Assembly (NCBI GenBank): GCA_965197905.1
Contig: CBDAOB010000005.1
Coordinates: forward strand, 588,176 to 652,175
DNA: 64,000 bases
Direction: 5' to 3'
Origin: Candidatus Latescibacterota bacterium
GTDB lineage: Bacteria > Latescibacterota > UBA2968 > UBA8231
Positions 6,271-56,032 of the stretch are shown here, piece by piece. The translations under genes were made by a program, and so were the position numbers. The notes beneath the pieces were generated by a model that made no database searches, had not been told where the DNA came from, and was given only the letters and a program-made list of their open reading frames with translations. Position 1 is the first letter of the stretch, and the number at the start of each line of letters is the position of its first letter.

Positions 6271-6308
6271 GCAGAGGGGGAGCACCTGCTCCCCCTCTGC
6301 TTTTTTTG
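6271..6308 (+). terminator. Rho-independent terminator
   Basis: Perfect 14-bp stem 'GCAGAGGGGGAGCA'/'TGCTCCCCCTCTGC' with a 2-nt loop, followed by TTTTTTT, 30 nt after the stop at 6241. Confidence 0.7.
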
Positions 6309-6328
6309 TGCGCAACCCCCCCAATCTG

Positions 6329-9839: not shown

Positions 9840-11507
9840 ATGACGCGAGTGCTCGTCTCGCTTTCTCTGCCGACCCTATGCGCCGTAAGCTGCCAGTTTG
9901 GGGTGGATGCGGACAACGAAGGGGCTCCGTGGTTTGAAGAGCGATCTATAGAGAGGGGAGTCGTGTTTCGGCTGGAATCTGGACATGATAAAAGGTATTT
10001 GATGCCGGAACTGACGGGTGGCGGGGCAGCACTATTCGACATGGACGCCGACGGCGATCTCGACGCCTATCTAGTACAGGGGGGTGGTCTAGAAACCAAG
10101 GCGGAATCCACGTCCACAAATCAGCTGTTCAGCAACGATGGTGCCGGAATATTCGAGAACGTTACCACTGGTAGCGGAAGCGCCGACCCTGGATACGGTA
10201 TGGGTGTTGCAACGGGCGACTACGACAATGACGGTGATGCCGATGTTTACATCGCCAACGTCGGTTCCAATGCGCTGTTGAAAAACCTCGGAAACGGTCG
10301 ATTCGATGACGTCACGCGAGAGGCGGGCGTCGGAGACGAAGCCTGGGGCACAAGCGCGGTTTTTGTCGACTACGATGCCGATGGTGATCTGGATCTCTTC
10401 GTAGCAAACTACATGCACTGGTCACCCGCCATCGAACGCCCGTGCACGAACGCCTCAGGTTTGCCCGACTACTGTTACCCGCCGGTCTACAAGATGCCGG
10501 CGGTCGACGTATTGTACCGCAATGATGGCACCGGCAGCTTCTCGGACGTGTCTGACGAGGCCGGAATGGAGACGGCATTCGGATACGGTTTCGGCACTGT
10601 AGCCGGCGATTTTACGGGAGATGGACTTGCCGACATCTTCGTGGCGAACGACGGCTCCCAGAACCAGCTATGGGTGAACCAGGGCGGCGACAGTTTCGCT
10701 GATCAGGCCCTCTCCAGGGGTTGTGCCCTGGGCGAGAGCGGCCGGCCAAAGGCGGGGATGGGCGTGACTTCCAACGATTTCAACGATGACGGGAAGCCCG
10801 ACCTATTGGTCGTAAACCTGCAATCTGAAACGGACTCCTACTTTCGAAATGAGGGCCCATATTTCGTCGACGCGTCAACCTCGCTGGGATTGTCCGGCGG
10901 AAGCGACCTCTATACACGTTTTGGGGTCGGAATAGTCGACTTCGACAACGATGGCTATCTGGACGGCTATTTCGCCAACGGCCGGATCAACAAAGTCGAT
11001 CTCGATGTCACCGATCGTTACGCCGAGCCGAATTTGCTCTACAGTGGGGTGGCGGGAGTGCGTTTCGAGGAAGTGACCCCGCGCGGGGGTACCAAAGAGC
11101 TACTAGTCGGGACGAGCCGTGCCGCCGCTTTCGGCGACGTGGACAACGACGGTGGCGTCGATGTATTAGTCGTAAATCGTAATGCCCAGGTCTACCTGCT
11201 CCACAACCTGGTTGGTAAAAAAGGAAACTGGATCACGTTTCGCTTAGTCAATTTAAACGGTGCTGACGCTCTCGGGGCGATATTGTCCGTGGATGTTGCC
11301 GGCCAGCGCCGGTGGCGAGAAGCGCGAACGGCATACAGCTTCCAAGCGGCCAACGATCCGAGGGTGCACATCGGTTTGGGAGATATCTCTAACATCGCGG
11401 CTGTCGAGGTGCGGTGGCCAGAGGGTAAGACGGAGCGCTTCGGTGACTGCGCCGCCAACCAGGTAATTCAGCTAGTGCAGGGAACGGGAGAGGCTGTGAC
11501 GCCGTAA
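9840..11507 (+). CDS. CRTAC1-family protein (FG-GAP/VCBS repeats plus ASPIC/UnbV C-terminal domain), secreted/lipoprotein
   Basis: Signal/lipobox-like N-terminus. Repeated 'DxDxDGDLD' FG-GAP calcium-binding loops ('DMDADGDLD', 'DYDNDGDAD', 'DYDADGDLD', 'DFDNDGYLD', 'DVDNDGGVD'). C-terminal 'GAILSVDVAG...VHIGLGD...VEVRWPEG' is ASPIC/UnbV-like. Confidence 0.8.
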   Translation: MTRVLVSLSLPTLCAVSCQFGVDADNEGAPWFEERSIERGVVFRLESGHDKRYLMPELTGGGAALFDMDADGDLDAYLVQGGGLETKAESTSTNQLFSNDGAGIFENVTTGSGSADPGYGMGVATGDYDNDGDADVYIANVGSNALLKNLGNGRFDDVTREAGVGDEAWGTSAVFVDYDADGDLDLFVANYMHWSPAIERPCTNASGLPDYCYPPVYKMPAVDVLYRNDGTGSFSDVSDEAGMETAFGYGFGTVAGDFTGDGLADIFVANDGSQNQLWVNQGGDSFADQALSRGCALGESGRPKAGMGVTSNDFNDDGKPDLLVVNLQSETDSYFRNEGPYFVDASTSLGLSGGSDLYTRFGVGIVDFDNDGYLDGYFANGRINKVDLDVTDRYAEPNLLYSGVAGVRFEEVTPRGGTKELLVGTSRAAAFGDVDNDGGVDVLVVNRNAQVYLLHNLVGKKGNWITFRLVNLNGADALGAILSVDVAGQRRWREARTAYSFQAANDPRVHIGLGDISNIAAVEVRWPEGKTERFGDCAANQVIQLVQGTGEAVTP

Positions 11508-11512: not shown

Positions 11513-13969
11513 ATGCGATCAGCTCGGAATCTCTTTCTTTTTCTGCTGTTCACACTCCCGGCGGCTCCAGCTGACTCCACCGACTCCGGTCATGAGCGGA
11601 TGCGTGCGGCTCTCAAGAGGATCGCCGACCATCCGCCGGAAGGTCATTGGGTTTTCCCCACCCTGCGCGCGGAACTCTTGCAACGCAAGCTTGACGAGGT
11701 CGAAGCGCAGGCCAAGGCCGGACAACCTGCTGAAAACCCGTTTACTCTTTGGCGACTCAACTTCGATCTCGGGCAGGCTTTGGTCAGATCGGGAGACCCG
11801 GAGCAGGGCATCAAACATCTGCTGCAATCCCGAGGCGTGCTCAACGAGCTGGAACGCCAATTCGCTGCGCTCGCTCGACAGGGCGGAGATGCACAACAGC
11901 TCAAACGCATTCAATTGCGGATGGGCAATTTTTCGGTGCAGACCGCTTTCTACCTGGGCATCTCCAACATTCGTCTCGGAGAGGACCAGAACTGCTCGGT
12001 GCAGAACCTCGCCGAAGCCTGCATTCTGCCCATCCAGGGAAAGGGTATCCACACCCAGAAGGAAGGTTCGCGCAACGCTATTCGCTATTTCCGGGAGGTT
12101 TTGGACCACCCTTACTGGCGCCTGAACCAGGGGGATGCGGAGGATCTAAGCAATGCCTCGGGAGGGATGAGCTCCGAGCGTCTGGGCGGTTTGGCGGCGC
12201 CGAACAAACGCACCGCCGACCAACTGGTTCATTTTCGCGAGGCCTCACGATGGCTGCTCAACATCGCCTACATGACCCTGGGAGAGTACCCGGAGTCTGT
12301 TCCAAAGAAACACCTCATTCAACCCCGCGTGTTCGCGGCCGACATTGCGTTTCCCCGTTTCGAAAACGTCGGCCCGAAGCTCGCGTTGGATACCTTCAAT
12401 CTCTGCGGTGGTGCCATCGTCGACGACTTTGACGGCGACGGCAATCTGGACATCGTCACCAGTACCTGGGATCTTGCCGGCCAGATGCGTTATTTTCGCA
12501 GTAAGGGCGACGGAACCTTTGTGGATGAAACCGACAAGGCTGGGCTGACCGGCTTTTTTGGCGGGCTCAACATGGTCCAGGCGGACCACGACAACGACGG
12601 CGACGTCGATATCTTCGTCCTGCGCGGCGCCTGGCTCTCTAGATGGGGTCGGCACCCGAACTCCCTGTTGAGCAACAACGGCGACGGCACCTTCACCGAC
12701 ATCACCTACGCAGCCGGATTGGCCGAGGTGAACTACCCCACCAAGTCGGCAACCTGGGGCGACTACGACAACGACGGCAACCTGGATCTCTTCGTCGTCA
12801 ACGAGACCGATGGCAGCATTGACGCGCCGTCTCAGCTGTTTCACAACAACGGCGACGGCACCTTCACCGACGTTGCCGACAAAGCCGGGGTCCGCAGCCG
12901 GTGTTTCGGCATGGGCACCGTCTGGGGCGACTACGACGGCGACGGGTTCCTCGATCTATATGTAGGGGATTGCCAACCGGCAAAGCTGTTTCACAATAAC
13001 GGCGACGGCACCTTCACCGACGTGGCACGGCGGCTGGGAGTGCGGGGACCGGGAAGACCGTTTGCTGCCTGGTTCTGGGACTTCGACAACGACAGCGCCC
13101 TCGACCTCCTGGTTAACGCCTCTTCGGGTTCGGTGGGGGTGCTGTCCCTGAACCCGCTGGGTGTCGATGTGGAAGAAGTCGAGCCGTCGCGCCGCTCGCT
13201 GCAACAGTCGGTGGACGTTGAGGTCATGCACCTCTACCGGAACGACGGCAAAGGAGGTTTTAGCGAGGTCGCGACACAGCAGGGGTTGACCTACCCATCG
13301 CAGCCGATGGGAGCGAATTTCGGCGATCTGGACAACGACGGGTTCCTCGATTTCTACCTCGCTACCGGCGACGTGTTCTACTCGGAGCTGCGACCGAACG
13401 TCATGTTCCGGAACCGCGGCGGAAACCGGTTCGAGAACGTTACCATGGCGGGTGGATTCGGACACCTGCAGAAGGGGCACGGGGTATCGTTCGCCGACCT
13501 GGACAACGACGGGGACCAGGATGTCTACGTGCAGATGGGAGGGGCTTATCCAGGGGACAAATACAGCGATGCCTTGTTCGAGAATCCGGGATTCGGCCAT
13601 CGCTGGATTGCGCTGAAGCTGGAGGGACGTGCCTCGAATCGATCGGCGATCGGCGCCCGCGTTCATGTGCGAATTCGGGAAGGTGACAAGGAGCGCTCCA
13701 TCTATCGGCACGTAAACAGCGGCGGCAGCTTCGGCTGCAACCCGCTGCGGCAAACAGTGGGTCTGGGAAAGGCCGACAAGATCCTCGCGCTGGAGATCTT
13801 ATGGCCTGCCACCGGCCGCACACAGCGCTTTGAGGACCTGGGTCTGGATCAAGCGATTCGGATCGTCGAAGGAGAATCGACCTACCAATCACTGCGGCTT
13901 TCCAGTTTCAAACTGGGGGGCGGCGACGCCGCGTCCGTTCCCGCAGCGGACCCGCACCAACACCACTAG
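11513..13969 (+). CDS. CRTAC1-family protein with N-terminal helical (TPR-like) domain, secreted
   Basis: Signal peptide 'MRSARNLFLFLLFTLPAAPA'. C-terminal FG-GAP repeats ('DFDGDGNLD', 'DHDNDGDVD', 'DYDNDGNLD', 'DLDNDGFLD', 'DLDNDGDQD') and UnbV/ASPIC tail ('RSAIGARVHV...VGLG...LEILWPATGRTQRF'). Three near-identical 'LFHNNGDGTFTDV' repeats are also near-identical at DNA level (12837, 12984, ~12669). Confidence 0.8.
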   Translation: MRSARNLFLFLLFTLPAAPADSTDSGHERMRAALKRIADHPPEGHWVFPTLRAELLQRKLDEVEAQAKAGQPAENPFTLWRLNFDLGQALVRSGDPEQGIKHLLQSRGVLNELERQFAALARQGGDAQQLKRIQLRMGNFSVQTAFYLGISNIRLGEDQNCSVQNLAEACILPIQGKGIHTQKEGSRNAIRYFREVLDHPYWRLNQGDAEDLSNASGGMSSERLGGLAAPNKRTADQLVHFREASRWLLNIAYMTLGEYPESVPKKHLIQPRVFAADIAFPRFENVGPKLALDTFNLCGGAIVDDFDGDGNLDIVTSTWDLAGQMRYFRSKGDGTFVDETDKAGLTGFFGGLNMVQADHDNDGDVDIFVLRGAWLSRWGRHPNSLLSNNGDGTFTDITYAAGLAEVNYPTKSATWGDYDNDGNLDLFVVNETDGSIDAPSQLFHNNGDGTFTDVADKAGVRSRCFGMGTVWGDYDGDGFLDLYVGDCQPAKLFHNNGDGTFTDVARRLGVRGPGRPFAAWFWDFDNDSALDLLVNASSGSVGVLSLNPLGVDVEEVEPSRRSLQQSVDVEVMHLYRNDGKGGFSEVATQQGLTYPSQPMGANFGDLDNDGFLDFYLATGDVFYSELRPNVMFRNRGGNRFENVTMAGGFGHLQKGHGVSFADLDNDGDQDVYVQMGGAYPGDKYSDALFENPGFGHRWIALKLEGRASNRSAIGARVHVRIREGDKERSIYRHVNSGGSFGCNPLRQTVGLGKADKILALEILWPATGRTQRFEDLGLDQAIRIVEGESTYQSLRLSSFKLGGGDAASVPAADPHQHH

Positions 13970-13988
13970 TTCGGCTAAAGGAGAGCGC

Positions 13989-15527
13989 ATGATTTCGCCG
14001 CTACGAAACATTTCACACCCTTTCAAACTGCCCTCTGACATTATCTACTTTCACGACTGGCGCTACGTGCACCACGGCAGTCACTCCACCGGCTGGAGGA
14101 ATAAGGAGGGGGAGTGGCTGCGTATCTGGTCGGCCGACCCGGTGCCCCCGCTGCGTCACGACCCCGGATACATGCCAATGGGTATTCGACTCCGTGCCAA
14201 ACCGGCGCAGAAAAGCGAGCCCTTCTATTTGCCCGCCGAGGACGAGGGTTTCATCTTCGCCGGCGTCATGATGCAGGACGAAGGGCGTTATCGCTGGTGG
14301 TACGAATCATTCCCGGCGGAGCATATCACCAGCGACAAATACGCCATGGGGGATAGCGATTACGTGCGCTACGGGGAATCCGACGACGGTTGGAGCTGGC
14401 GATTCCCGGAGCTGGGTCAGATCGAGCGAAAGGGCACCACAAACAACAACATCGTGTACGGTCCCCCGGTCATCGATCCCACCGGCTTGCACGGGCCCTG
14501 CATCTTCAAGGATCCCTCGGCGCCGCCGGAGGAGTGCTACAAGATGATCCACACCGGGCACCTGACGCCAGCGATGAAAGAGCGCTACCTGAAGGAGCGA
14601 CCGGACGAGGTGGGCGCCCTGAATACGGCGGAGCGTTGGGACGGCCTCTTTGGGGCAATCTCTCCCGACGGCATCAGCTGGACGCCGCTGCCCGAGCCGC
14701 TGGTGGCCCAGATCAGCGATACCCACAATGCCTGCGAGTACGATCCGGTGCTGGGGCAGTACGTGGCGTACGTCCGCAACCATTTCTTTGCCAGGCGCAC
14801 CATCGGCCGCAGCGCCAGTGACGATTTTCGTCGGCTGCCCCTGTCCGAGGATCTCTTCTGGCCGGGCACTGTCGAAGAGGCGTACGACCTGTGGTACACC
14901 GCCGCAAAGACCAAGATGCCCGGCACCACCGACTACCACATCATGTTTCCGCTGCGCTGGCGCCTCATCGACGACTCCTTCAGCTTCGTGCTGGCAGCCA
15001 GCCCGGACAACATCCTGTGGAGCTACGTCCCCGGGGGCGCGGTCTGCGAGCCAGGTGATTCCGGAGATTGGGTAGCCGGTGCGGTGGCTCCGGGCGTGGG
15101 TATGGTGGAGCTGCCGGACAACAAGATGGGGATCCCGATCGTCGGCTCTCCGGAACCGCACAAGCATTTGCGGCAGCCGCCCCACGGACATATGGCGTGG
15201 GCGATCTGGCCGAAAGGACGATTGGTGGCGCTGGAGGCACCGGTGGAAGGGAGTTTCCGAACCTTTCCTCTGGAGACCGAGAAACGAAACATCCACCTGA
15301 ATTTCAAGACACCCCCCGGGGGGTATGTTCAGGTTCAGGTTACCGATCGCCGCTACCAGCCGCTTCCCGGCCGCAGCTTCGAGGATTGCGACTGGTTGAT
15401 CGGCGATCAGATCGATCGGCAGGTGAGTTGGAACGGGGAGACCGACCTCGGACACGACGGAAGCGGCACTCTTTCCCTTGGATTTCGCATGCGCTGCGCC
15501 GAGCTATACAGTGTCGAGTTCAGATAG
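13989..15527 (+). CDS. Cytoplasmic BNR/Asp-box beta-propeller protein (glycoside-hydrolase-like), paralog of 54499..55965
   Basis: Start chosen at ATG 13989, preceded by SD 'AAAGGAGAG'; the ORF-track start 13830 overlaps the upstream gene. Asp-box-like 'ESDDGWSW' is followed by 'NNIVYGP', mirroring 'TSDDGEHWEQ...NNIAYDP' in the paralog. Confidence 0.5.
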   Translation: MISPLRNISHPFKLPSDIIYFHDWRYVHHGSHSTGWRNKEGEWLRIWSADPVPPLRHDPGYMPMGIRLRAKPAQKSEPFYLPAEDEGFIFAGVMMQDEGRYRWWYESFPAEHITSDKYAMGDSDYVRYGESDDGWSWRFPELGQIERKGTTNNNIVYGPPVIDPTGLHGPCIFKDPSAPPEECYKMIHTGHLTPAMKERYLKERPDEVGALNTAERWDGLFGAISPDGISWTPLPEPLVAQISDTHNACEYDPVLGQYVAYVRNHFFARRTIGRSASDDFRRLPLSEDLFWPGTVEEAYDLWYTAAKTKMPGTTDYHIMFPLRWRLIDDSFSFVLAASPDNILWSYVPGGAVCEPGDSGDWVAGAVAPGVGMVELPDNKMGIPIVGSPEPHKHLRQPPHGHMAWAIWPKGRLVALEAPVEGSFRTFPLETEKRNIHLNFKTPPGGYVQVQVTDRRYQPLPGRSFEDCDWLIGDQIDRQVSWNGETDLGHDGSGTLSLGFRMRCAELYSVEFR

Positions 15528-20961: not shown

Positions 20962-21924
20962 ATGACTTCCTTTAACGAATCCGCCAAAAAAACCAGGGCC
21001 TGGCTCGAGGCGAACTTCGACCCGGACGGTAGCTGCCGCATCAATCCCGAGGACGCCCGGTACTACATGAAAACCCCGTATATGATGACCATGGCGGGTA
21101 TGCGCGAGAGAGGAGCACGGGTCGCCCAACAGGTGATGACACGGTTCGTCGGAGATGTCGGCGACTTGGTCTCCTCGGCGCCCCTGGAAAATCGAATCTA
21201 CGCCATGGGCTGGCTCGTACTGGGTGCGGTGGTTGCTGAGCGCTTTGATCTGGCACATGTCCTGGCTGATCGGCTCGAGCATTATCAGGACCGCCAAAGC
21301 GGGGGAATCGTGCTGCAGGATGAGGATGCGGGTGAGGAGGTGGCGGAGGTCTGTTTCTCAGGGGGCGCCGGCATGGCGCTTGCGGCCGCGGGGCGCCTCG
21401 AAGCAGCGCGAAGGATGGCCAACACCTTCGAAGCGCTTATCGTCGTGCAAGGCGCGGCGGGTTGCTTTTACAACCGCTTCCGGCGGGACGGATCTGTGGT
21501 GTTGCGAAAAGCGGGGGGCGAGTGGGAGAAGGCGTATGATTTACAGCAGGACGAACAGCGTCCCGCCAATTTTGCCACGGTGATCAACACATTGGTGTGG
21601 ACAGCGCGAGCTCTGCGCGAGGAAGGTTATTTGCGAGCAGCTCGGAAATATGTTGATCTGGTATATCGGCACCGGCGGAATCCGGCACAGTTTGGGCGCG
21701 CCACCAAGTTCGGCTGGTCCATCTTGAATCTATATGCGGAGACCGGCGACACCGATCTGCTGGAGCGCGCCCGTGAGCTGGGGGAAGTATTGGTGGCAAA
21801 ACAGAGCCACGACGGGCTCTGGAACCCCCAGCCGGGAAACGTGGAGGACGCTCCCGCCTGGGCGCGACTGTCCTATTCCTCTGACTGTGCCATGACCATC
21901 TTTGCCCTAGCGAACCTAAGCTAA
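20962..21924 (+). CDS. Hypothetical protein (alpha/alpha-toroid-like, unknown function)
   Basis: 320-aa ORF with no internal stops and typical high-GC codon usage; I recognise no diagnostic motif. Confidence 0.45.
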   Translation: MTSFNESAKKTRAWLEANFDPDGSCRINPEDARYYMKTPYMMTMAGMRERGARVAQQVMTRFVGDVGDLVSSAPLENRIYAMGWLVLGAVVAERFDLAHVLADRLEHYQDRQSGGIVLQDEDAGEEVAEVCFSGGAGMALAAAGRLEAARRMANTFEALIVVQGAAGCFYNRFRRDGSVVLRKAGGEWEKAYDLQQDEQRPANFATVINTLVWTARALREEGYLRAARKYVDLVYRHRRNPAQFGRATKFGWSILNLYAETGDTDLLERARELGEVLVAKQSHDGLWNPQPGNVEDAPAWARLSYSSDCAMTIFALANLS

Positions 21925-21945: not shown

Positions 21946-22704
21946 ATGACCGAAGATATGGACCCCAGGCGCCATCTGGAACTGGAAGGTACCGTAAATA
22001 CGAGGGATGTGGGTGGGTACGAAACTCGCGATGGCCGGCATACCAAATGGGGTGTCCTTCTGCGCTCCGATTCGCTGCACGAACTGTCGCCGGCCTCCAA
22101 GCAAGTGCTGGTGGATTTCGGATTGAAATCGGTGTTGGACCTCAGGAAGAGTGCCGAGATGCAGAAAACGCGGAACGTGTTCTTCGGCTCTGACACGGTC
22201 GATTACTATCACCAGAACATGGTAGGCGACACTCTCATGCGGGAACGGGAGCATATCCCAGAGGAGCTGGATTACGTCGAGCATATGCGGTGGTCCTACT
22301 CGGTGGTGCTCGATCGCCGCAGATCCCACATACAGGATACCCTCTCACTGTTGGCGCGTCCGGGGACATTGCCCGCACTGGTTCACTGTGCCGGTGGCAC
22401 CGAACGCACCGGTCTGATCGTCGGGCTGGTTCTGGGCATCGTAGGAGTTCCCGAAGAGACCATCACGGAGGATTTCGCGCTGACCGCACGATTCACCTAT
22501 GCCAACTACCTGGAGAAACATCCCGAGCTATCGGCCGACAGCTACACGCTGGAAGATCATCAAGCGAAAATATGCCGGCCCGACACCATGCTGGCCGTGC
22601 TCAGGACGCTGGAAGAGCGTTATTGCAGCGTTGTCGGGTTTGCCCGCCATATCGGTGTGAGCGAAGAGGAGATGGAGGCCCTGCGGGACGCTCTCCTGGA
22701 GTAG
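21946..22704 (+). CDS. Protein-tyrosine phosphatase family (PF13350-like)
   Basis: 'LVHCAGGTERTG' matches the CX5R P-loop (HCxxGxxRTG) of tyrosine/dual-specificity phosphatases. Confidence 0.7.
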   Translation: MTEDMDPRRHLELEGTVNTRDVGGYETRDGRHTKWGVLLRSDSLHELSPASKQVLVDFGLKSVLDLRKSAEMQKTRNVFFGSDTVDYYHQNMVGDTLMREREHIPEELDYVEHMRWSYSVVLDRRRSHIQDTLSLLARPGTLPALVHCAGGTERTGLIVGLVLGIVGVPEETITEDFALTARFTYANYLEKHPELSADSYTLEDHQAKICRPDTMLAVLRTLEERYCSVVGFARHIGVSEEEMEALRDALLE

Positions 22705-22798: not shown

Positions 22799-24967
22799 TT
22801 GCCCATTCACTCTGAAGACCTTGGTTTTGCACCTCCTCACCGGCCCACAAAGGTGTTCGGACTGCATGGATATCTTTCCCATGCCAGCGTGTCACGGGGA
22901 CATCAGCTGGAGATACATGCGAGCAACGATGGCCCACTACACCTTCAGCTGCTCCGACTTGGGGTCGGCAAGGTGAACCGGCAGGCCGACGCGATTTCAT
23001 CGACGGTCCCCATATCCGACCTGGGTCGCGTCGACTGCGACGAGCGGCCTGTTCATTGCGGAAGTTATGTCCATGTAGCCGACGTGTCCGTTCCTACTGT
23101 GTTCGGGTTGGAGGTCTGGTTTCGACAGCTGGCTCACCGGGGATGTGCGGGGCTCATCTCCCACGATCGTTTTGCGTTGTCGCTCGGTGCGGAAGGCAGG
23201 CTCGAATTTCGCCTCGGTGAAGCGGCCATCAGGGCGCCGGATGCCCCCTCCTTGAAGATCTGGCATCACGCCTGGACCCAATGCAACGCAGACAAGATCG
23301 AATTATTTCTGGATGGCGACCTCGTGGGCAGTGCGAGCATCCAGAGTGGATCAGAGGGAGCCGGCGGCAGGGAGGGGACGCTCCGCATGGGTGCCTTGCT
23401 CAACGACAACAACGAGGCAGATCATCTGCTCACCGGTGATCTCTGTGCGCCAGCAGTCTACGACCGGGTGTTCAGTGCAGAGGAAATACGGCATCGCTTT
23501 CGCACCAAAGAGCTGGAGCCCGCTTCCGGTTGCATCGGCCACTGGAAGTTCGATGGCCTGCACGGTCCGCCGTTCCGCGATACCTCTGGCTCGGGGCGGC
23601 ACGGCCAAGGTGTCAACTATCCGCTGCGCATGATACCGGGGCCAGGACTGCAAGAGGAACAACCCTGGGCGGAGTTCGATCCGACATCCGACCCGAACCA
23701 TGGCCACGCCGTGCGCCTGATGGCGGATCAGCTGGTGGACTGCCGCTGGCCCCAGGTCCTGACCTGGACGGTTCCGGACGATCTGCCTCAAGGCCAGTAT
23801 GCCATGCGGCTTGAGAATGAAGGCGGAGACTCGAGAGACCTCCCGTTCATCGTGAGGGCAGCGAAACCTGCTGCCACGCTTATGGTTCTGTCGACGACGG
23901 GCACGCGTGTGGCCTACAACTACATGCCGTTTGGTGATCCGGAATTGGACTACGGCGCATATCTGAATCATCCCAGCTATCCGATCCTTGGGCATCTGCT
24001 CGGTCAACGGCGACCCGCTCGGGGCGACCCCTATTTCTACCAGGTGGTCAATTTCGAGCTTCCCTTGTGCGCCTGGTTGGATCAGCATCGTATACCGTAC
24101 GACCTGTATAGCGAGTGGGACCTGGAGTCGGATCCATCGCTGTTGGTTCATTATGCTGCGGTGGCGTGGGCGGGTCACTGTGAGTACTGGACGGCCACAC
24201 GGTATGAGGGGTTGTGTCGCTTTCGCGATCGGGGCGGTCACATCTTGTCGCTCTCTGGAAATACCTGCTTCTGGCGGGTCAGTATCGATCTCGAGAACGA
24301 GGTCATGGAGGTCCGCAAGCACGGTGCCGAGCAGGCCCGAGATAGCTGCATAACCGTAGATGCCATGGTAGACAACTCCCATTGGCACCAGATGGATCAC
24401 CAGCCGGGCACCCTGATGCAGGCATCGGGTTGGCCCCAGTACCGGTTGGGCCTGGGCATGACCAATGGTTGGTCAGTTCCCTGTCGCATCGACGGCGATA
24501 GCGCCGGCTACGAGGTGCTGGAGCCGGAGCACCCCTTGTTTCGCGATCCCCACGAGGTGTCGGTCGAGACTCCGTTTGCCCCCGGCGGCGCCGGTTACGA
24601 GACCGATGTCAGCTACCGGTCAATGGTAGACCGATTCGGCGAGGCTCAGAACCCGGTCCGATCGCCCCGACCGTCGCGGTCTGATGCGAGCACGGAGGGC
24701 GCAGCGAAAAACAGCGGCGCCGTACTCGCGCGGGCGCGCCTCCAGGACGCTCTTGTCCTGGACCTCGACATGAACAGCACCATCGGCGAGCTGTGGTCCG
24801 AGATGCAATTCGGAGAATCGGAAACTGGAGGCATCACTTTCGCCGCCGGCAGCTGCATGGCGGCGCTGGTCCTTCTGGAGGATCGGAACTTCTCCAATTT
24901 CATGCTCAATGTTCTGCATCGAATGGGCTTGAACGAAAGTCGCACGAGCGGAGCTGCCGCAAGTTGA
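22799..24967 (+). CDS. Large LamG-like / N,N-dimethylformamidase-beta-subunit-like (DUF6605-like) protein
   Basis: 722 aa. The N-terminal half has a concanavalin/LamG-like pattern. The central region ('LMVLSTTGTRVAYNYMPFGDPELDYGAYLNHP...YDLYSEWDLE...AWAGHCEYWTATRYEGL...GGHILSLSGNTCFWRVSI') resembles the DMFase large-subunit family. The stop lies 2 nt before the start of membrane paralog 2. Confidence 0.45.
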   Translation: MPIHSEDLGFAPPHRPTKVFGLHGYLSHASVSRGHQLEIHASNDGPLHLQLLRLGVGKVNRQADAISSTVPISDLGRVDCDERPVHCGSYVHVADVSVPTVFGLEVWFRQLAHRGCAGLISHDRFALSLGAEGRLEFRLGEAAIRAPDAPSLKIWHHAWTQCNADKIELFLDGDLVGSASIQSGSEGAGGREGTLRMGALLNDNNEADHLLTGDLCAPAVYDRVFSAEEIRHRFRTKELEPASGCIGHWKFDGLHGPPFRDTSGSGRHGQGVNYPLRMIPGPGLQEEQPWAEFDPTSDPNHGHAVRLMADQLVDCRWPQVLTWTVPDDLPQGQYAMRLENEGGDSRDLPFIVRAAKPAATLMVLSTTGTRVAYNYMPFGDPELDYGAYLNHPSYPILGHLLGQRRPARGDPYFYQVVNFELPLCAWLDQHRIPYDLYSEWDLESDPSLLVHYAAVAWAGHCEYWTATRYEGLCRFRDRGGHILSLSGNTCFWRVSIDLENEVMEVRKHGAEQARDSCITVDAMVDNSHWHQMDHQPGTLMQASGWPQYRLGLGMTNGWSVPCRIDGDSAGYEVLEPEHPLFRDPHEVSVETPFAPGGAGYETDVSYRSMVDRFGEAQNPVRSPRPSRSDASTEGAAKNSGAVLARARLQDALVLDLDMNSTIGELWSEMQFGESETGGITFAAGSCMAALVLLEDRNFSNFMLNVLHRMGLNESRTSGAAAS

Positions 24968-24969: not shown

Positions 24970-26916
24970 ATGGACCCACACAAGTCGGCAGTGCAGCCCC
25001 GGATTACCCTGAGGGCGCTCCTTCTTGGAGCCCTCACCATAGGTCTCACGTTCTATTACGCTATCACGGAAGTACAGGGGCAGGGGGTCGGCGGTTTCGT
25101 GCTGTCGCAGATGCCGATTCTCGTGCTCGTGCCTTTCTTCACCTGGCTGTTCCTGAACGTGGCCCTCAAATGGCTGTGGCCTGCCATAGCTCTCAGAAGA
25201 GATGAGCTGCTGACGATCTTCTGCATGCTTTGGGTGGTCGGCACCGTCCCCCACATAGGATGGAGTGGCTATTGGGTGATCGTGCTAGCGATTCCCACCT
25301 ATTTTGCTTCCGCGGAGAATCAGTGGGCCGAGGTGTTCTTTGACCTGATGCCGTGGCACCTTTTTCCGGAGTCCTCGGCGAGAGTCATAGACGGGGTCTG
25401 GCAGGGGCTGCCACAAGGGGCGGAGATTCCGTGGGAGGGGTGGTTGGGGCCGATTGCGCAGTGGCTCGGGGTCTCTATGGGGCTGGTGGTGTTCGGGTTT
25501 TGTCTCGTTGCCGTCTTCCAGCGTCAGTGGGAGGCAAGAGAGAAACTCACCTTTCCTCTGGCGCAGCTGCCGCTAGATCTCACCGCCGGATTCGATTCCA
25601 GCCGTCGACTACCCGACATCTTTCGATCGAGGTTATTCTGGATCGGTTTTTTTCTGGTTTTCGGCGTCGTGGTGTACAACGTCGCTACCTATTTCTCTCC
25701 TGGAATAAGACCTATGGGGATCTACTGGGAGATGTACGAAATCGAGTTCCCAGAGCCGTATCCCTCCATCCGCGTGCGTATCATGCCTCTGATCATGGCG
25801 GTGACCTATCTCTGTCCGTTGGATATCCTCGGCAGCATGGTGCTCTTTCACCTCCTGGCCAAGGGCAAGATGGGTGTCATAGACCGGCTAGGCTTGAGTT
25901 TTGGAGAAGAGGGCCGAACCCTGACATCCAATACGGTGCTGCACCTGGAGAGTTATGGGGCCATGATCTTTATCGGCTTGTGGTCCGTCTGGCTGGCCCG
26001 TGGCCACTTGCGCCGCGTTTGGCAACAGGTGCGTCTGGGCTCCGGCGATCGGGCCGATGTGCGCCTCTACCGCCTCGCCGTTGGCGGATTGCTGCTGTCA
26101 GCCCTCTACGTGGTGAGCTGGCTGATAATGTTGGGCATGAGTCCACAGCTGGCGGTATTGGTTTTCCTGGTTACGGTTTTGACCTATCTGGTCATCGTCA
26201 AGCTGATCGCCGCCACCGGGTGCGCTTACCTGCTCACCGATTGGGGGCATGTGAAGGCAGAGTCGTTTGTGCACCATCTGCTGGGTACCGAGCGCCTGTC
26301 GCCACAGGACATCGTCGGTTTCGGGATTTATACGAGCCGCAGTTTTTTTGGTAATCTGCGCATACCGGCGTGGCCATCCCTGCCCCACGTGTTGCGAATA
26401 TTTCCGCTGCGAGATCAGCCAGGTTGGGTTACAGCGCTCATTTTCTTGGCTTTTCCAGTCGGTTTTCTGACAGCGGTGGGGGCTACCCTCGAGATGGGGT
26501 ATGTCAGGGGCGGGCTGGTGTCCAGCGCCGGCGGCGCCATCGGCGAATACGACCAGATTGCCCGCTTGATTCAAAACCCGACCGCAACCGATCCGGACCG
26601 TTGGGGCGTTTTTTCGTTTGGTCTGCTCGAAGCGGCCTGTCTGGCGTTTCTCCGCGGACATTTCCACTGGTTCCCGCTGCATCCGGTTGGCGTCGCGTTC
26701 CAGAACACGATCGTTTCCTCCCGCTACTGGTTCTCGCTCTTCCTGGTCTGGCTGGTAAAGCTGATGCTGCTGCGCTACGGCGGAGTCCGCGCCTACCTCA
26801 CCGCCAAACCGTTTTTCTACGGTCTCGGAGTGGGGTATGTTTCCGGCGTCATCCTTTCGGTCACCGTGGATCTGATCTGGTTCCCCGGCGGCGGTCATCT
26901 CATCCACAACTGGTAA
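24970..26916 (+). CDS. Large polytopic membrane protein, paralog 2 of the uncharacterised 4-member family
   Basis: Start at ATG 24970 ('MDPHKSAVQPRITLRALLLGALTIG...'). It shares all conserved blocks with 6329..8332, 27083..29020 and 29026..30972: 'ELLTIFCMLWVVG', 'NQWAEVFFDLMPWH', 'EKLTFPLAQLPLDLTAG', 'YLCPLDILGS', 'LESYGA', 'WSVWLARGHLRRVW', 'VKLIAATG', 'FGNLRIPAWP', 'HWFPLHPVGVAFQ', 'LLRYGGVRAY..KPFFYGLGVGYV'. Confidence 0.75.
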   Translation: MDPHKSAVQPRITLRALLLGALTIGLTFYYAITEVQGQGVGGFVLSQMPILVLVPFFTWLFLNVALKWLWPAIALRRDELLTIFCMLWVVGTVPHIGWSGYWVIVLAIPTYFASAENQWAEVFFDLMPWHLFPESSARVIDGVWQGLPQGAEIPWEGWLGPIAQWLGVSMGLVVFGFCLVAVFQRQWEAREKLTFPLAQLPLDLTAGFDSSRRLPDIFRSRLFWIGFFLVFGVVVYNVATYFSPGIRPMGIYWEMYEIEFPEPYPSIRVRIMPLIMAVTYLCPLDILGSMVLFHLLAKGKMGVIDRLGLSFGEEGRTLTSNTVLHLESYGAMIFIGLWSVWLARGHLRRVWQQVRLGSGDRADVRLYRLAVGGLLLSALYVVSWLIMLGMSPQLAVLVFLVTVLTYLVIVKLIAATGCAYLLTDWGHVKAESFVHHLLGTERLSPQDIVGFGIYTSRSFFGNLRIPAWPSLPHVLRIFPLRDQPGWVTALIFLAFPVGFLTAVGATLEMGYVRGGLVSSAGGAIGEYDQIARLIQNPTATDPDRWGVFSFGLLEAACLAFLRGHFHWFPLHPVGVAFQNTIVSSRYWFSLFLVWLVKLMLLRYGGVRAYLTAKPFFYGLGVGYVSGVILSVTVDLIWFPGGGHLIHNW

Positions 26917-27082
26917 GGGCGATCCGGTCGCCTTCACAGACCCGATTTTTTAGATTAACACAGGCTGCTGAGTACCCTGCCCGCGGCCTCATATCCGACC
27001 GCCCATACCGGAGGCTTCACGTTCTGCAGCGATAGGGGCCGCGATTACTTCCGTTCCGCCAAGTTCCCATCCCAATCTCAAG

Positions 27083-29020
27083 TTGGAGACCGACGACACG
27101 CCAGCGATTACCGCCCGAGCGATAATTCTCGGAGCACTAACAGTTGCTGTCGCCCTCTATTATCTGATTACCGAAATCGCCGGACGGGGCATGGGTGGGT
27201 TCGTCGCTTCGCAGTTGCCTATGGTTGCGTGGGTGCCGTTCGTGCTCTGGCTCTTCGCCAACCTCGTGCTGCACCGCATGTGGCCCAGGATTGCGCTTCG
27301 CCGCGGCGAACTGCTCACCATCTTCGCCATGCTCTGGGTTGTGGGCGCGATCCCGCAATGGGGCTGGGTGAGCTACTGGGTCATGTGGCTGGCCGTGCCG
27401 CCCTACTTCGCCTCTCCGGAGAATCAATGGGCAGAGACCTTCTTCGATTACCTCCCCTGGCACGCCTTTCCGGATACCTCCCCGCGGGTGCTGCACGGTC
27501 TCTGGCAGGGGTTGCAGGAGGGGGCGCCGATCCCGTGGGAGGCGTGGATCGGCCACACAGCCAACTGGCTCGGGGTCTCCCTGGCGATGGTGGTCTTCGG
27601 CTTCTGCATGGTCTTGCTGCTGCAGCGCCAATGGGAGGTACACGAGAAGCTCACCTTTCCCCTGGCGCAGCTGCCTCTGGACCTGACCGCCGGATTCGAC
27701 GATAGCGTGGGCGTTCCTCTGATTTTTAGGAAACCGCTGTTCTGGGTCGGCTTCTTCGTCGTGTTCGCTCCCGGTCTCTACAACATCATTACCTATTTTA
27801 CTCCAGGCCTGCCCACGATTGAGCTATATTGGAAGTGGTACACCGCCGAACTGCCCCCAGGTTATCCCGAGCTCTACTTTCGTGTCATGCCGCTGGTCAT
27901 TGCCGTGACCTATCTCTGTCCGCTGGATATTCTCGGAAGCATGGTGGCATTCGCGGCGCTCGCTTTTCTCAAGGGTTCGCTGATGGGCCGGTTCGGCTTC
28001 TCTCTCGGATCCGAGGGGCAGCCGTTGGAGTGGGGCAGAATTCTACATCTGGAAAGCTATGGCGCCATGCTTTTCCTGGGGCTATGGTCGATCTGGCTTG
28101 CCCGTGGTCATCTGCGTCGCGTCTGGAGGCAGGTGCGACACGGTGTGGGAGACCGGGGAGAGGTGGCCCGCTATCGCTGGGCTTACCTCGGCCTGGTGCT
28201 CTCCAGCATCTACGTGATCACCTGGGCCGTGGGTCTGGGCGTCAGCCTGCCGCTGGCGATATGCGTGTTTGTGGTGATGTTTCTCACCTATCTGGTTCTC
28301 ATCAAGCTGATCGCCGCCACCGGCTGCGCCTACCTGCTAACCGACTGGAGCCACATGAAGGCGGAAACCTTCGTACAGGAGCTGATCGGCAACGCCAACC
28401 TGTCGCCGCAGAACTACGTCGCCTTCAAGGTGTTCGTCGGCCGCGCCTTCTTCGGCAATCTGCGCATTCCGACATTGCCGGCCCTGCCCCACGTCTTCCG
28501 CATTTTCTCGTTGAATCGGCAGCCAGGGTGGGTAACAACCCTCGTTTTTGTCGCCTTCCCGCTGGGGTTCGTGGTGTCGGTCATAGCAACCTTGGAGCTG
28601 GGTTACACCCGGGGAGAGCTGATCTTCGAATCAAGGGGGGTCATCGGCAACGTCAACTACATCTTCGTCTATCTCGACAATCCGACCGAGCTGGATCTGC
28701 ACCGCTGGGCAGTCTGGTTCCTCGGGTTCTTCGAGGCCGCGGCGCTCGCATTTCTGCGCTCGAGGTACTATTGGTTTCCGTTGCACCCGGTCGGCCTGGC
28801 GTTTCAATGGACGATTGTCGCCATCGTCTACTGGAGCACGTTGATGCTCGTCTGGCTGGCCAAGCTAGTCATCCTTCGTTTCGGCGGCGTGCGCGCCTAC
28901 CTCGCTGGCAAGCCGTTCTTCTACGGGCTGGGAATCGGCTACGTGGTTACGGTCATTGTCTCGGTGACCGTGGACCTGATCTGGTTTCCCGTCGCCGGTC
29001 ACAGGATACACGGCTGGTAA
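27083..29020 (+). CDS. Large polytopic membrane protein, paralog 3
   Basis: 645 aa, 'METDDTPAITARAIILGALTV...'. It has the same motif set. It is separated from paralog 2 by 166 nt and from paralog 4 by 5 nt. Confidence 0.75.
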   Translation: METDDTPAITARAIILGALTVAVALYYLITEIAGRGMGGFVASQLPMVAWVPFVLWLFANLVLHRMWPRIALRRGELLTIFAMLWVVGAIPQWGWVSYWVMWLAVPPYFASPENQWAETFFDYLPWHAFPDTSPRVLHGLWQGLQEGAPIPWEAWIGHTANWLGVSLAMVVFGFCMVLLLQRQWEVHEKLTFPLAQLPLDLTAGFDDSVGVPLIFRKPLFWVGFFVVFAPGLYNIITYFTPGLPTIELYWKWYTAELPPGYPELYFRVMPLVIAVTYLCPLDILGSMVAFAALAFLKGSLMGRFGFSLGSEGQPLEWGRILHLESYGAMLFLGLWSIWLARGHLRRVWRQVRHGVGDRGEVARYRWAYLGLVLSSIYVITWAVGLGVSLPLAICVFVVMFLTYLVLIKLIAATGCAYLLTDWSHMKAETFVQELIGNANLSPQNYVAFKVFVGRAFFGNLRIPTLPALPHVFRIFSLNRQPGWVTTLVFVAFPLGFVVSVIATLELGYTRGELIFESRGVIGNVNYIFVYLDNPTELDLHRWAVWFLGFFEAAALAFLRSRYYWFPLHPVGLAFQWTIVAIVYWSTLMLVWLAKLVILRFGGVRAYLAGKPFFYGLGIGYVVTVIVSVTVDLIWFPVAGHRIHGW

Positions 29021-29025
29021 CGCGG

Positions 29026-30972
29026 ATGGATCACTCATCCTCACGATCTGTCGAATCCTCCGCCGAATCAGGCAAAGTCGATCGCCACATCACCGCTCGC
29101 GCGATTGCCATCGGGGGAATTACGATCGCGGCGATTTTCTACGGAATCGACATAGCGGTCAAATCCCAGCTTCCTCTCATCGTTATCGGCGCCTTCATGA
29201 TGTGGCTGTTCGTCAACATACTTCTGAAGAAGCTGCTGCCGTTTCTTGCTCTCAGTCGCAGTGAGCTGCTGACCATCTTCGGAATGCTGTGGGTCGCGGG
29301 TACTATTTCGGGCAGTGGGTGGATGAGTTATTGGGCACTCATCATGGCGACCCCGGCGTATTACGACTCCGAGGAGAATCAGTGGTCGGACACGATCTTC
29401 GATTTCATGCCCTGGCATGTCTTTCCGGAGACCGATGCACGGGTCATCGACGCATTTTGGCTGGGGTTACCGGAAGGCGCCCCTATACCCTGGGACGGTT
29501 GGTTAGGTGCAGCCAGTCAGTGGTTCACGATATCCGTGGCGTTAGTCGTTTTCGGTTTCTGCATAATTCTCCTTTTCCAGCGGCAATGGGAAGAGAAGGA
29601 GCGCCTGGCGTTCCCCATCGCACAGGTCCCGGTCGAGTTGACCGCCGGTGTCGACGGTCCGCGGGCGGTGCCCGAGATGCTGCGCTCCCGTCTCTTCTGG
29701 TGCGGCTTTCTCCTGATCTTTGTTCCAATCCTCTATAGCGTCGCCACCTACTTCATCGCCGGGCTGCCCGCCCTAGAATTCTACTGGATCGCCTACGATC
29801 TGAAGATTGGTGGCTCTGTTCCCGATCTCTGGGTGCGCATCCTGCCGATGCTGATGATCATGCTCTACCTGTGTCCCCTGGATATTCTCGGGAGTTTCAT
29901 CCTGTTCTATTTCATCGCGGTCGCGAAAGGCACGGCGATGCAGCGGATCGGATTCTCGGTCGGTTCGGAGGGTCATGTGCTGGGTTGGGAGAAGATCCTG
30001 CAGATGGAAGCCTACGGCGCCCAGATCTTCGTCGCGTTGTGGTCCATATGGCTTGCACGCCGTCACCTGCGACGCATCTGGGAGCAGGCGCGAAGTGGGG
30101 AAGGTGACCCGAGTGATGTGGTGCGCTACCGGATCGCCTTCTTGGGATTGGTGCTTTCGGCCATCTATATCATCGCCTGGCAGGTGAGCATAGGAATGAA
30201 CCTGGTTCTTTCCGTCGGCATGTTCTTGTTGACAACGCTCATCTACTTCCTCATAGCCAAACTGGTTGCCGCCACCGGATTCAGCTATCTGCTGCCGCAC
30301 TGGGATCACATGAAGGGAAAGTCGTTCATCCTAGATCTAGTGGGCACAAACCACATTTCCTCACAGAGCCTGGTAGCGTTCAGCGTGGTCACCAGTCACG
30401 CCTATTTTGGCAACTTTCGCGTCTCGGCATGGCCGGCCATCCCCCATATCCTCAAAATGTTTCCGGTGCGTCGGCAACTGGGCAAGGTCGCGGCGATGGT
30501 GGCGGTGGCTTTCGCCGTTGGATTTGTGTCAGCCTGCGTTTCAGCGTTGAGCACCGGTTACGAAGGCGGCATGTTTCGCAGCGTCGGCGCCGGCGTCAGT
30601 TCTTTCGACTACACCGTGGACCTAATTCTGAATCCCCGGCTTCCCGACTTCGGCCGCTGGGGGGTCTGGTTGTTTGGGTTCTTCGAGGGGATGCTCTTGG
30701 CCATCTTGCGCGCTCGCGTCCACTGGTTCCCGCTGCACCCGATCGGCTTGGCTTTTCAGTACACGCCGTCGCCACATCGCTACTGGGCGACGTTGTTGAT
30801 CGTCTGGTGGGTAAAGTTCGCGTTGCTGCGTTATGGAGGGCCACGGGCGTATGAAACCGGGAAGCGATTCTTCTACGGTCTTGCGGTGGGTTACGTCATG
30901 GGAGCGTTGCTGTCCGACGGCGTGGACTACATCTGGTTTCCCCTCGATCCGCATATCGTCCACACCTGGTAG
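29026..30972 (+). CDS. Large polytopic membrane protein, paralog 4
   Basis: Start at ATG 29026 ('MDHSSSRSVESSAESGKVDRHITARAIAIGGITI...'). The 1047-aa ORF-track entry 27829..30972 is a read-through of an out-of-frame stretch overlapping paralog 3. It has the same motif set ('SELLTIFGMLWVAG', 'NQWSDTIFDFMPWH', 'ERLAFPIAQVPVELTAG', 'YLCPLDILGS', 'WSIWLARRHLRRIW', 'AKLVAATG', 'HWFPLHPIGLAFQ'). Confidence 0.75.
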   Translation: MDHSSSRSVESSAESGKVDRHITARAIAIGGITIAAIFYGIDIAVKSQLPLIVIGAFMMWLFVNILLKKLLPFLALSRSELLTIFGMLWVAGTISGSGWMSYWALIMATPAYYDSEENQWSDTIFDFMPWHVFPETDARVIDAFWLGLPEGAPIPWDGWLGAASQWFTISVALVVFGFCIILLFQRQWEEKERLAFPIAQVPVELTAGVDGPRAVPEMLRSRLFWCGFLLIFVPILYSVATYFIAGLPALEFYWIAYDLKIGGSVPDLWVRILPMLMIMLYLCPLDILGSFILFYFIAVAKGTAMQRIGFSVGSEGHVLGWEKILQMEAYGAQIFVALWSIWLARRHLRRIWEQARSGEGDPSDVVRYRIAFLGLVLSAIYIIAWQVSIGMNLVLSVGMFLLTTLIYFLIAKLVAATGFSYLLPHWDHMKGKSFILDLVGTNHISSQSLVAFSVVTSHAYFGNFRVSAWPAIPHILKMFPVRRQLGKVAAMVAVAFAVGFVSACVSALSTGYEGGMFRSVGAGVSSFDYTVDLILNPRLPDFGRWGVWLFGFFEGMLLAILRARVHWFPLHPIGLAFQYTPSPHRYWATLLIVWWVKFALLRYGGPRAYETGKRFFYGLAVGYVMGALLSDGVDYIWFPLDPHIVHTW

Positions 30973-31001: not shown

Positions 31002-31760
31002 TCAACGCCCTAAGATGCGGGCAACCTCCTCGACGATACGCGATTCGAGCCCGGTGGATTTGTTGACGAATCCTTCCACGTCCGATTTCAGAAAGGCTAC
31101 GGTGTTCTGGTCGATATCCTCGGATAGTACGACGATCGGAATCGTTACGTTCATGTTTCTTCGAAGTTTGCGGATGGCGCCATGGCCGCCGGCGTCCGGG
31201 GTGGCGATATCTATCAGGATGAGATCGAAAGGTCGCGTAGACAGCAGCTGTACGGCGTGATCGAACGAGGGGGAAAGAATGACGCGATGCCGCTGTCCGA
31301 GCGCTTTTACGACCTCGGTCCTGGACCCCACCGACGAATCGATGAGCAGGATGGCGGCGCGGCCTTTGAATTCGATGTCAGCGGAACCGCGAGGACGTTC
31401 AAGCGCTTTCTCAAGCGCACCAGCCAGCTTCTCCTCGCTAAACGGCTTGACCACGTATCCGGCAGGATTCGTAGCGCGGGCGCGTTGAATGGTCTGCGGA
31501 TCGGTGTTTGCGGTGACATAGATTACTGGGGTTCCCATTCGCTCGCCAATGACCTGTGCCGCCATGACGCCATCCTTTTCGCCCTCAAGGCGAATGTCCA
31601 TGAGGACTACATCCGGCTTGAGCTGCGCGGCCTTGGACACGACAGCGGTTCCGGATGAAACAACTTCAGCGACCTTATACCCCAACTTTTTTACAATATC
31701 GGCCAGATGGGTGGCAACGATCGCCTCGTCTTCGGCAATGAGAACCGTACTATCCGACAT
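31002..31760 (-). CDS. Response regulator with two tandem receiver (REC) domains and no output domain
   Basis: REC1 has 'VLIAEDE...VVLMDIRLEG...PVIYVTAN...GYVVKPF'. REC2 has 'ILLIDSS...DLILIDIATPDAGG...IPIVVLSE' but only one acidic residue in the first acidic pocket, so it is possibly a pseudo-receiver. Confidence 0.75.
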   Translation of the reverse strand: MSDSTVLIAEDEAIVATHLADIVKKLGYKVAEVVSSGTAVVSKAAQLKPDVVLMDIRLEGEKDGVMAAQVIGERMGTPVIYVTANTDPQTIQRARATNPAGYVVKPFSEEKLAGALEKALERPRGSADIEFKGRAAILLIDSSVGSRTEVVKALGQRHRVILSPSFDHAVQLLSTRPFDLILIDIATPDAGGHGAIRKLRRNMNVTIPIVVLSEDIDQNTVAFLKSDVEGFVNKSTGLESRIVEEVARILGR

Positions 31761-54452: not shown

Positions 54453-54498
54453 CGAACCCTCAAACGACGCTGGCGCGCAGGCGGCGGGAAAAGAACAG

Positions 54499-55965: not shown

Positions 55966-56032
55966 GGTGCTTCCTCCTGAGGTGAGTGCGTAATTCGAGA
56001 GGTCGGTAGCCGGTTTTGGGACATCTACTCCC

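Follow-up and report, generated by a model that had tools for sequence, protein, structure and literature searches.

We analysed a stretch of 64,000 nucleotides from a Candidatus Latescibacterota genome (contig CBDAOB010000005.1, positions 588,176 to 652,175; the whole stretch is referred to as the window), in which three paralogous genes for polytopic membrane proteins, here called A, B and C, form a tight tandem array. These proteins and a fourth paralog, D, were found to belong to the Pfam family pair DUF6785/DUF6784, and this family is most likely a very divergent branch of the oligopeptide transporter (OPT)/Yellow Stripe-like (YSL) superfamily (TC 2.A.67). Our best explanation, which we consider probable, is that A-D are inner-membrane, cation-coupled importers of the elevator type, with paralog-specific substrates that may derive from glycans or amide-containing compounds.

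The array was first described in an earlier note made from the DNA letters, and most of that description agreed with our analysis. The three forward-strand reading frames are all open and are separated by gaps of 166 nt (A-B) and 5 nt (B-C), and the start codon of A lies 2 nt past the stop of the gene upstream. The proteins have 645-648 aa, and the at least 12 hydrophobic segments noted for them correspond to about 16 long helices in a structural model of A. All 15 motifs quoted as conserved were detected; deviations are very few in A and B, and each motif has 0-6 substitutions in C. Identity had been estimated at about 40-50%, which is appropriate for C, the most divergent copy of the array (50% to A and 49% to B), but A and B share 61%, above the estimate.

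The proposal that the family is unassignable did not hold. In a scan with Pfam hidden Markov models (HMMs), for which the earlier note had itself named these two DUFs as candidates to check, A, B, C and D were all full-length DUF6785 proteins (PF20581; E values of 1e-75 to 1e-84) followed by DUF6784 (PF20580; 1e-17 to 1e-19). PF20581 scores were 283.5 bits for A, 278.6 for B, 263.6 for C and 255.1 for D (gathering score 25), with coverage of model positions 1-498 in A and B, 34-498 in C and 2-498 in D. PF20580 was located C-terminal to DUF6785 in all four, with 62-69 bits against a cutoff of 26.4. The same two-domain architecture was present in 64 of 64 divergent relatives scanned; A-D are plain, end-to-end members of these families, with no difference, and the families have no assigned function. 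Paralog D, which was absent from the earlier note, is 46-54% identical to A-C (tblastn) and is encoded 17 kb upstream of the array. Its similarity to A-C starts near positions 6356-6404, and its true start may be at about 6383.

Public names of the relatives are "hypothetical protein" or, at NCBI, "DUF6785 family protein". An NCBIfam scan of A-C gave no family model, and DUF6785, DUF6784, PF20581 and PF20580 were not mentioned in the literature searched. An exhaustive profile search returned 5,309 cluster representatives (clustered at 50% identity) at E<=0.001, all unnamed, including 1,298 at E<=1e-30. One unusual form was also observed: in cluster P0240, a 2,120-aa protein from Latescibacterota contigs carries DUF6785/6784 at its C-terminus (region 1482-2107). 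Among the 64 scanned members, one, which is most likely this protein, also matched the ABC-permease domains MacB_PCD and FtsX. The long form is probably no artefact of gene calling, as several independent contigs encode members of 2,083-2,120 aa.

Structure prediction followed by a Foldseek search, which had been proposed as a check, provided a confident model and a single solved neighbour fold. The AlphaFold2 (AF2) model of A was built from a 42-sequence alignment without templates and had a mean pLDDT of 89.2, a pTM of 0.91 and about 16 helices of at least 13 residues; a crude hydropathy scan was too noisy for topology, and the AF2 helices were taken instead. When the model was compared to the Protein Data Bank (PDB), the only significant matches were 7wst_A and 7wsr_A (E 1e-8, probability 1.0), both of which represent HvYS1, the Yellow Stripe 1 protein of barley. 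The TM-score was 0.58-0.61 over about 683 columns at 11-13% identity, and the next match had an E value of 0.095. The model has the YS1-type fold, in which a core with a hairpin and a discontinuous helix is joined to a scaffold domain. Its TM1-loop-H1 hairpin spans residues 14-69 (helix 14-36, long loop 37-49, helix 50-69) and its discontinuous TM2 lies at 77-90/91-98/99-112, both at positions that align to TM1-H1 and TM2 of HvYS1. The AF2 weights are older than the 2022 release of the HvYS1 structure and no templates were used, so this match should be independent evidence. Within the OPT/YSL family, only HvYS1 has a solved structure. The study that described it detected no protein structurally homologous to one or the other of the two domains and put forward an elevator-type mechanism coupled to protons (PMC9691689). 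Readings of A as a GT-C glycosyltransferase, a MOP-Wzx flippase or an O-antigen polymerase were rejected, as no structural similarity to these folds was seen.

A probable relationship to OPT proteins was also indicated by comparison of sequence profiles. The DUF profile contained 122 sequences and the OPT profile 15, namely HvYS1, 10 annotated bacterial and archaeal OPTs from plasmid records and 4 metagenome proteins with PF03169. The HvYS1 sequence (residues 45-676) was read from a PDB alignment, and its residue numbering agrees with D446, D490 and D494 of the HvYS1 paper. A homolog search with the OPT alignment yielded only close gut-metagenome relatives of one query and added little diversity. 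In local mode, hhalign aligned the DUF and OPT profiles with a score of 53.4 and an E value of 1.6e-5 over 417 collinear columns (164-636 versus 123-620), whereas one reversed and ten block-shuffled OPT profiles, used as local controls, gave scores of 16-24, E values of 0.08-0.53 and probabilities below 1% over 16-35 columns. In global mode, the score was 50.7, the E value 2e-9 and the probability 96% over 542 columns. Several features are common to the two profiles: (I/L)TxR near the N-terminus, where TM1 begins; a nearly invariant Glu79 of the DUF family, which aligns to the Glu of the OPT motif QEN..VQT; and R-x(9-10)-L-x-[FY]-P of the DUF family (R185...F195-P196), which aligns to IPLR...L.YP of OPTs.

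Length and topology are in agreement with this alignment. A-C have 645-648 aa compared to 635-678 aa in nine full-length prokaryotic OPTs, and OPT proteins have 16 transmembrane segments (PMC3061005). Prokaryotic OPTs (PF03169; TC 2.A.67 clusters 4-5; for example, from Lachnospira eligens, a Pseudomonas aeruginosa plasmid and Halobacterium plasmids) resemble the DUF family in length, in the 16-segment topology and in the collinear profile alignment. Searches with single sequences or family profiles against all PDB sequences (phmmer with A; hmmsearch with profiles of 42 and 125 sequences) gave nothing relevant; the sole match, a homing endonuclease with an E value of 1.4, was spurious. An internal repeat between the N- and C-terminal halves was not significant by hhalign (probability 1.3%). 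We conclude that DUF6785/DUF6784 and OPT proteins very probably have the same fold and are remote homologs, although the former are outside the OPT family as Pfam defines it.

Comparison with HvYS1 (PDB 7wsr/7wst), an H+-coupled Fe(III)-phytosiderophore symporter, revealed the same order of elements (hairpin, discontinuous TM2, long scaffold helices) and a similar length. However, HvYS1 is a plant protein and the DUF family is bacterial, and the latter carries, on the periplasmic side, a large insertion that is conserved (residues 113-158, PENxW...IPWxxW), as well as a conserved tail at the C-terminus, DxIWFPxxGHxxHxW. This tail is strongly conserved in A-D (residues 634-648 of A). Within the close subfamily, His643 and His646 are invariant and the terminal Trp is nearly so; the mean pLDDT of this block is low (55).

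In HvYS1, the substrate site is held by the "YS core" and involves the TM1-H1 loop, the unwound TM2, TM9, H6 and H7, with H7 capping the pocket through Tyr547 and Tyr551 (PMC9691689). The equivalent segments of the DUF family were found to be conserved within an orthologous lineage and different between lineages. The TM1-H1 loop and TM2 break read TEVQGQGVGGFVLSQMP and GTVPHIGW in lineage A, TEIAGRGMGGFVASQLP and GAIPQWGW in lineage B, and VVGQGIGAGRYVNSQFP and GIMPQRGW in lineage D. In lineage C, the loop has a deletion of about 9 residues followed by GIDIAVKSQLP, and the break is GTISGSGW; the deletion is specific to this lineage and is kept in C orthologs. The least conserved segment of A-D, residues 514-541 (26% identity compared to 52% overall), includes the helix aligned to H7 of HvYS1. 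The residue-level mapping of all these segments comes from an alignment of 12% identity. Lineage-specific pocket segments of this kind are the pattern that substrate diversification would produce. With regard to the previous suggestion of a substrate-diversified transporter or membrane enzyme, a transporter is the best reading, and the GT-C and polymerase folds had no structural support.

We then considered how the family is distributed. A scan of a genome collection gave 182 confirmed relatives, and taxonomy and copy counts were taken from the best 80. Almost all of these 80 were from metagenome-assembled genomes (MAGs) of Candidatus Latescibacterota, with a few labelled Gemmatimonadota or Planctomycetota. 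Among them, OZ244619.1 contributed 14 loci with at least 17 copies including tandems, OZ244235.1 had 8 loci and at least 12 copies, and OZ242318.1 had 9 loci and at least 10 copies; one locus on OZ244235.1 is 96% identical to A. More than one DUF6785 copy was present within 8 kb in 25 of 82 loci (four copies in L043) and a single copy in the other 57. The array is therefore not an isolated oddity, but one instance of an expansion across the phylum. Orthologs of B, C and D were detected elsewhere, with 76% identity in the single-copy locus L009, 70% in L047 and 73% in L031, respectively. As these values of 70-76% exceed the 61% between A and B, the array did not arise by recent local duplication and the paralogs are old; it is one of the arrangements seen in a multigene family of long standing.

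Features of the window are listed in Table 1.

Table 1. Genes of the DUF6785/DUF6784 family and other features of the window
Feature	Position	Strand	Description
Secreted beta-propeller protein	4346..6241	+	Pfam FlgD_ig, Por_Secre_tail, CHU_C; C-terminal sorting domain of type IX secretion system (T9SS) type; directly upstream of D
Paralog D	6308..8332	+	DUF6785 + DUF6784 (Pfam E 1.5e-75 and 1.3e-17)
TPR protein	8402..9832	+	Pfam match; downstream of D
FG-GAP/ASPIC-UnbV protein	9840..11507	+	Pfam match; downstream of D
FG-GAP/ASPIC-UnbV protein	11513..13969	+	Pfam match; downstream of D
c2-cluster protein	13830..15527	+	No Pfam or PDB sequence match; 57 cluster members across loci
Conserved hypothetical protein	20962..21924	+	No Pfam match; first co-directional gene of the block; cluster c30, upstream in L001, L005 and L006
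Y_phosphatase3-family phosphatase	21946..22704	+	Pfam E 2.8e-53; same position in L001, L005 and L006
LamG-like + DMFA2_C amidase-like protein	22799..24967	+	Pfam DMFA2_C E 2.2e-41, Laminin_G_3 E 4.5e-8
Paralog A	24970..26916	+	648 aa, ATG start; DUF6785 + DUF6784; predicted membrane transporter of OPT/YS1 fold
Paralog B	27083..29020	+	645 aa, TTG start; DUF6785 + DUF6784 (Pfam E 1.1e-82 and 6.7e-17)
Paralog C	29026..30972	+	648 aa, ATG start; DUF6785 + DUF6784 (Pfam E 3.9e-78 and 2e-18)
Response-regulator gene	31002..31760	-	Pfam Response_reg E 2.1e-32; convergent, just downstream of C; position not kept in L001
Multihaem c-type cytochrome (MtrC-like domains) + gamma-glutamyltranspeptidase	50863..54755	-	
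c2-cluster protein	54499..56205	-	No Pfam or PDB sequence match; same cluster as 13830..15527
SBP_bac_5 peptide-type ABC binding protein	60381..62207	-	

The amidase-like gene is apparently translationally coupled to A. Its product matched N-acetyl-(R)-beta-phenylalanine acylase (E 2e-18) and the large subunit of N,N-dimethylformamidase (E 9e-16) in the PDB, and no obvious signal peptide was seen by eye. This homology hints at an amide-containing cargo. Between A and B (26917..27082), a short GC hairpin (GGCGA-TCCGG-TCGCC) directly follows the stop of A, and a T6 run occurs about 14 nt further on. The terminator scan did not call this element, which could attenuate read-through. A promoter and terminator scan of 20.5-32 kb gave 5 promoter-like and 16 terminator-like sites, compared to 4.2 and 10.8 in shuffled sequence, and none was convincing. 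Rfam (gathering threshold) and tRNA scans of the whole window gave no matches. Given the gamma-glutamyltranspeptidase and the SBP_bac_5 protein in the window, genes for conventional peptide and glutathione handling are also nearby.

Paralog D is part of a co-directional block, in which the propeller protein with the T9SS-type C-terminal domain (CTD) is followed by D, the TPR protein, the two FG-GAP/ASPIC proteins and a 565-aa protein; this order is kept in L065 and L070. An AF2 model of the propeller protein (pLDDT 80) shows, from the N-terminus onwards, a helix, an Ig domain, a beta-propeller and a C-terminal domain. Its best Foldseek matches were PorZ, surface lipoproteins of the BtuG type and YncE, all generic propeller matches with low TM-scores. 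In 12 loci, a DUF6785 gene has a member of this protein's family no more than two genes away, and the neighbour cluster of the 8402..13969 genes is found at that distance in 27 of all loci retrieved and in 26 of the 74 non-redundant ones. With regard to the c2 proteins, Asp-box-like motifs (S-x-D-G-x-x-W) were noticed by eye in a representative (L075:26-1294), which suggests that they may be beta-propeller, glycosidase-like proteins.

Examination of gene neighbourhoods of homologues, another of the checks proposed, identified recurrent secreted-protein and catabolic neighbours of DUF6785 genes. A protein family that we designate OM950 (about 925-1,044 aa) adjoins DUF6785 genes in 33 of 74 loci (L015-L022, L026-L045 and L058-L068; examples of the protein are L078:3624-6593 and L064:3485-6619) and has no copy in the window. 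Its representative has a hydrophobic, signal-peptide-like N-terminus (by eye) and a weak, sub-threshold Pfam match to the SlpA_C beta-barrel; OM950 may be an uncharacterised outer-membrane component. At least one of OM950, a T9SS-CTD propeller or an FG-GAP/ASPIC protein was present within 8 kb in 49 of the 74 non-redundant loci, and within two genes in 42. In about 12 loci, OM950, c2, a CTD-propeller and ASPIC occur in this order, with DUF6785 and a xylose-isomerase-like TIM barrel further along. Additional neighbours include GH95, GHL6/GH42-like proteins, sulfatase, FGE-sulfatase, M19 dipeptidase, PhyH dioxygenases, GFO/IDH/MocA oxidoreductases and Amidohydro_2. These surroundings resemble a catabolic setting of the polysaccharide utilization locus (PUL) type; among representatives of recurrent neighbour clusters, no Pfam match to a TonB-dependent receptor/SusC or SusD was detected.

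Taken together, these data are consistent with the following mechanism. Outside the cell, secreted propeller and ASPIC proteins, glycosidases and sulfatases encoded nearby would act on glycans, glycoconjugates or other compounds that contain amides and release the products of their break-down. Each paralog would then couple the import of a small organic solute to that of a cation, probably H+, by movement of its core domain, which binds the substrate, relative to the scaffold domain, and neighbouring amidase-like, dehydrogenase and isomerase enzymes would process the solute in the cytoplasm; cargo of A, in particular, may be processed by the coupled amidase-like enzyme. The role as elevator-type importers is suggested by analogy with HvYS1 and with characterised OPTs, and the characterised eukaryotic members are all cation:solute uptake symporters (PMC3061005). 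The divergence of the paralog sequences and the genes around them suggest that the paralogs recognise different substrates. Saier's group had earlier used context to infer oligosaccharide substrates for one subcluster of prokaryotic OPTs (PMC3061005). According to the earlier note, the array would be an ordinary transporter cluster if its proteins confidently matched a well-characterised family whose substrate is known. By this measure the finding is half refuted: the fold is indeed known, but the sequences are extremely divergent and the match does not give the substrate.

Several observations weigh against this interpretation. The match to YS1 was obtained from a predicted model and not from an experimental structure. 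At the sequence level, the PF03169 OPT HMM did not match A-C (E<=1) or the 64 divergent members (E<=10), the DUF family profiles did not match HvYS1 among PDB sequences, the family profile gave no signal when hhalign compared it with HvYS1 as a single sequence, and the probability of the local alignment between the DUF and OPT profiles was only 79%. Asp446, Asp490 and Asp494, the proposed proton site of HvYS1, have no clear counterparts in the DUF family, and details of the mechanism and the coupling ion are therefore uncertain. The OPT motif D..QD.KTGY, which holds Asp490 and Asp494, is replaced in the DUF family; a low-confidence alignment places D490 and D494 beside Ser470 and Val474, and the conserved His473 and Arg/Lys476 of the DUF motif MP...H..[KR] lie near these positions, unaligned to them. 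Transport by DUF6785 members is inferred by analogy, and as of 2011 no prokaryotic OPT had been biochemically characterised (PMC3061005). As for gene context, the neighbour counts have no genome-wide background and many of the loci are orthologous and thus not independent, while proteins with FlgD_ig tails are abundant in this genome anyway; for these reasons, the inference about substrates is weak. In addition, L005 has the amidase-like gene, which the 85% relative L001/L006 lacks.

Alternative explanations were also considered. Tandem repeats are prone to assembly error and the assembly is of metagenome type, which raises the question of whether the array is a mis-assembled repeat or a set of decaying pseudogene copies. 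However, DNA identity among A, B and C is only 64-67%, with a longest common exact run of no more than 28 nt, and each has an intact reading frame whose product is full length by comparison with the Pfam models. The order A-B-C also recurs in independent assemblies, both in L005, on a closed 6.7-Mb chromosome (87-96% identity over the three genes; 96% to A), and in the MAG locus L001/L006 (85-89% identity), and each copy has conserved orthologs. Mis-assembly is excluded on the basis of the low DNA identity, the intact reading frames and the presence of the array in other assemblies, and we regard an artefact of either kind as extremely improbable. The conserved order and the 5-nt gap between B and C would also fit subunits A, B and C of one hetero-oligomeric transporter. 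HvYS1 was purified and solved as a homodimer formed via its scaffold domain (PMC9691689), and tandem pairs occur elsewhere, e.g., in L015-L022 with a 28%/57% pair. We consider such a complex unlikely, given that DUF6785 genes are single in most of the loci, that B, C and D have orthologs apart from A-type genes (in L009, L047 and L031, respectively), and that the 166-nt gap between A and B contains a weak hairpin and a T-run.

The other alternatives concern what is transported, and in which direction. The sole protein with a similar solved structure transports Fe(III)-phytosiderophore, and prokaryotic OPTs belong to the iron-siderophore subdivision of the family tree (PMC3061005), so that A-D might import metal chelates of the siderophore or nicotianamine-like type, as in the YSL clade, to which prokaryotic OPTs are closest in phylogeny. 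This appears quite improbable: no gene for siderophore biosynthesis, a TonB receptor or iron regulation was found among the neighbour families scanned, the pocket-aligned segments (TM1-H1 loop and TM2 break) differ both from HvYS1 and between paralog lineages, and at least 12-17 copies per genome are hard to reconcile with chelate uptake alone. Exporters, flippases or membrane-embedded enzymes (GT-C-like, polymerase or lipid-linked glycan flippase) could account for the conserved acidic and aromatic loop residues (PENxW, IPWxxW, WVExERLxFPL) in such large polytopic proteins and for PMT_2 glycosyltransferase genes in some loci, and in the 2,120-aa protein DUF6785 is probably fused to an ABC permease module of MacB/FtsX type, MacB-type systems acting in export. 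On the other hand, the neighbours scanned are mostly catabolic or secreted, with biosynthesis-type genes limited to a few glycosyl- and methyltransferases in L002 and L004, and the characterised proteins of the OPT fold are all uptake symporters (PMC3061005), which makes these functions very unlikely for A-D.

Uptake by divergent OPT-fold importers, the reading we prefer, invites comparison with the PULs of Bacteroidota, as a functional analogy only. In both cases, a putative outer-membrane protein, surface beta-propellers, glycosidases or sulfatases and an inner-membrane importer are co-located, but SusC/TonB-dependent receptor and SusD domains were not found in the scanned DUF6785 neighbours, and the inner-membrane transporter has an OPT fold. 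We tentatively raise the possibility, itself rather doubtful, that DUF6785/DUF6784 proteins are the import module of a PUL-analogous system specific to Latescibacterota, in which OM950, T9SS-CTD propellers and ASPIC proteins feed them with oligosaccharide, glycopeptide or N-acyl compounds, and in which the transporters would have radiated into a dozen or more paralogs per genome, each specific for its substrate. If true, glycan fragments would be a substrate class new to the OPT fold, and an uncultured phylum would gain a new type of locus. Copy number is a further difference from known systems: the prokaryotic OPT genes retrieved occur singly, and the DUF6785 copies of one Latescibacterota genome can number at least 12-17.

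In this study, a family that was already catalogued as a domain of unknown function, and whose fold is known, was linked to the OPT/YSL fold; it is most likely a sequence-divergent branch of the OPT superfamily, with a striking expansion in an uncultured phylum. This link provides a testable function and mechanism for a Pfam family of unknown function, and the lineage-specific differences in the pocket loops offer a natural series for the study of specificity in elevator-type OPT transporters. Latescibacterota are thought to degrade complex organic matter. DUF6785 transporters may be among the main uptake routes of these bacteria, and their substrates would show what the organisms eat.

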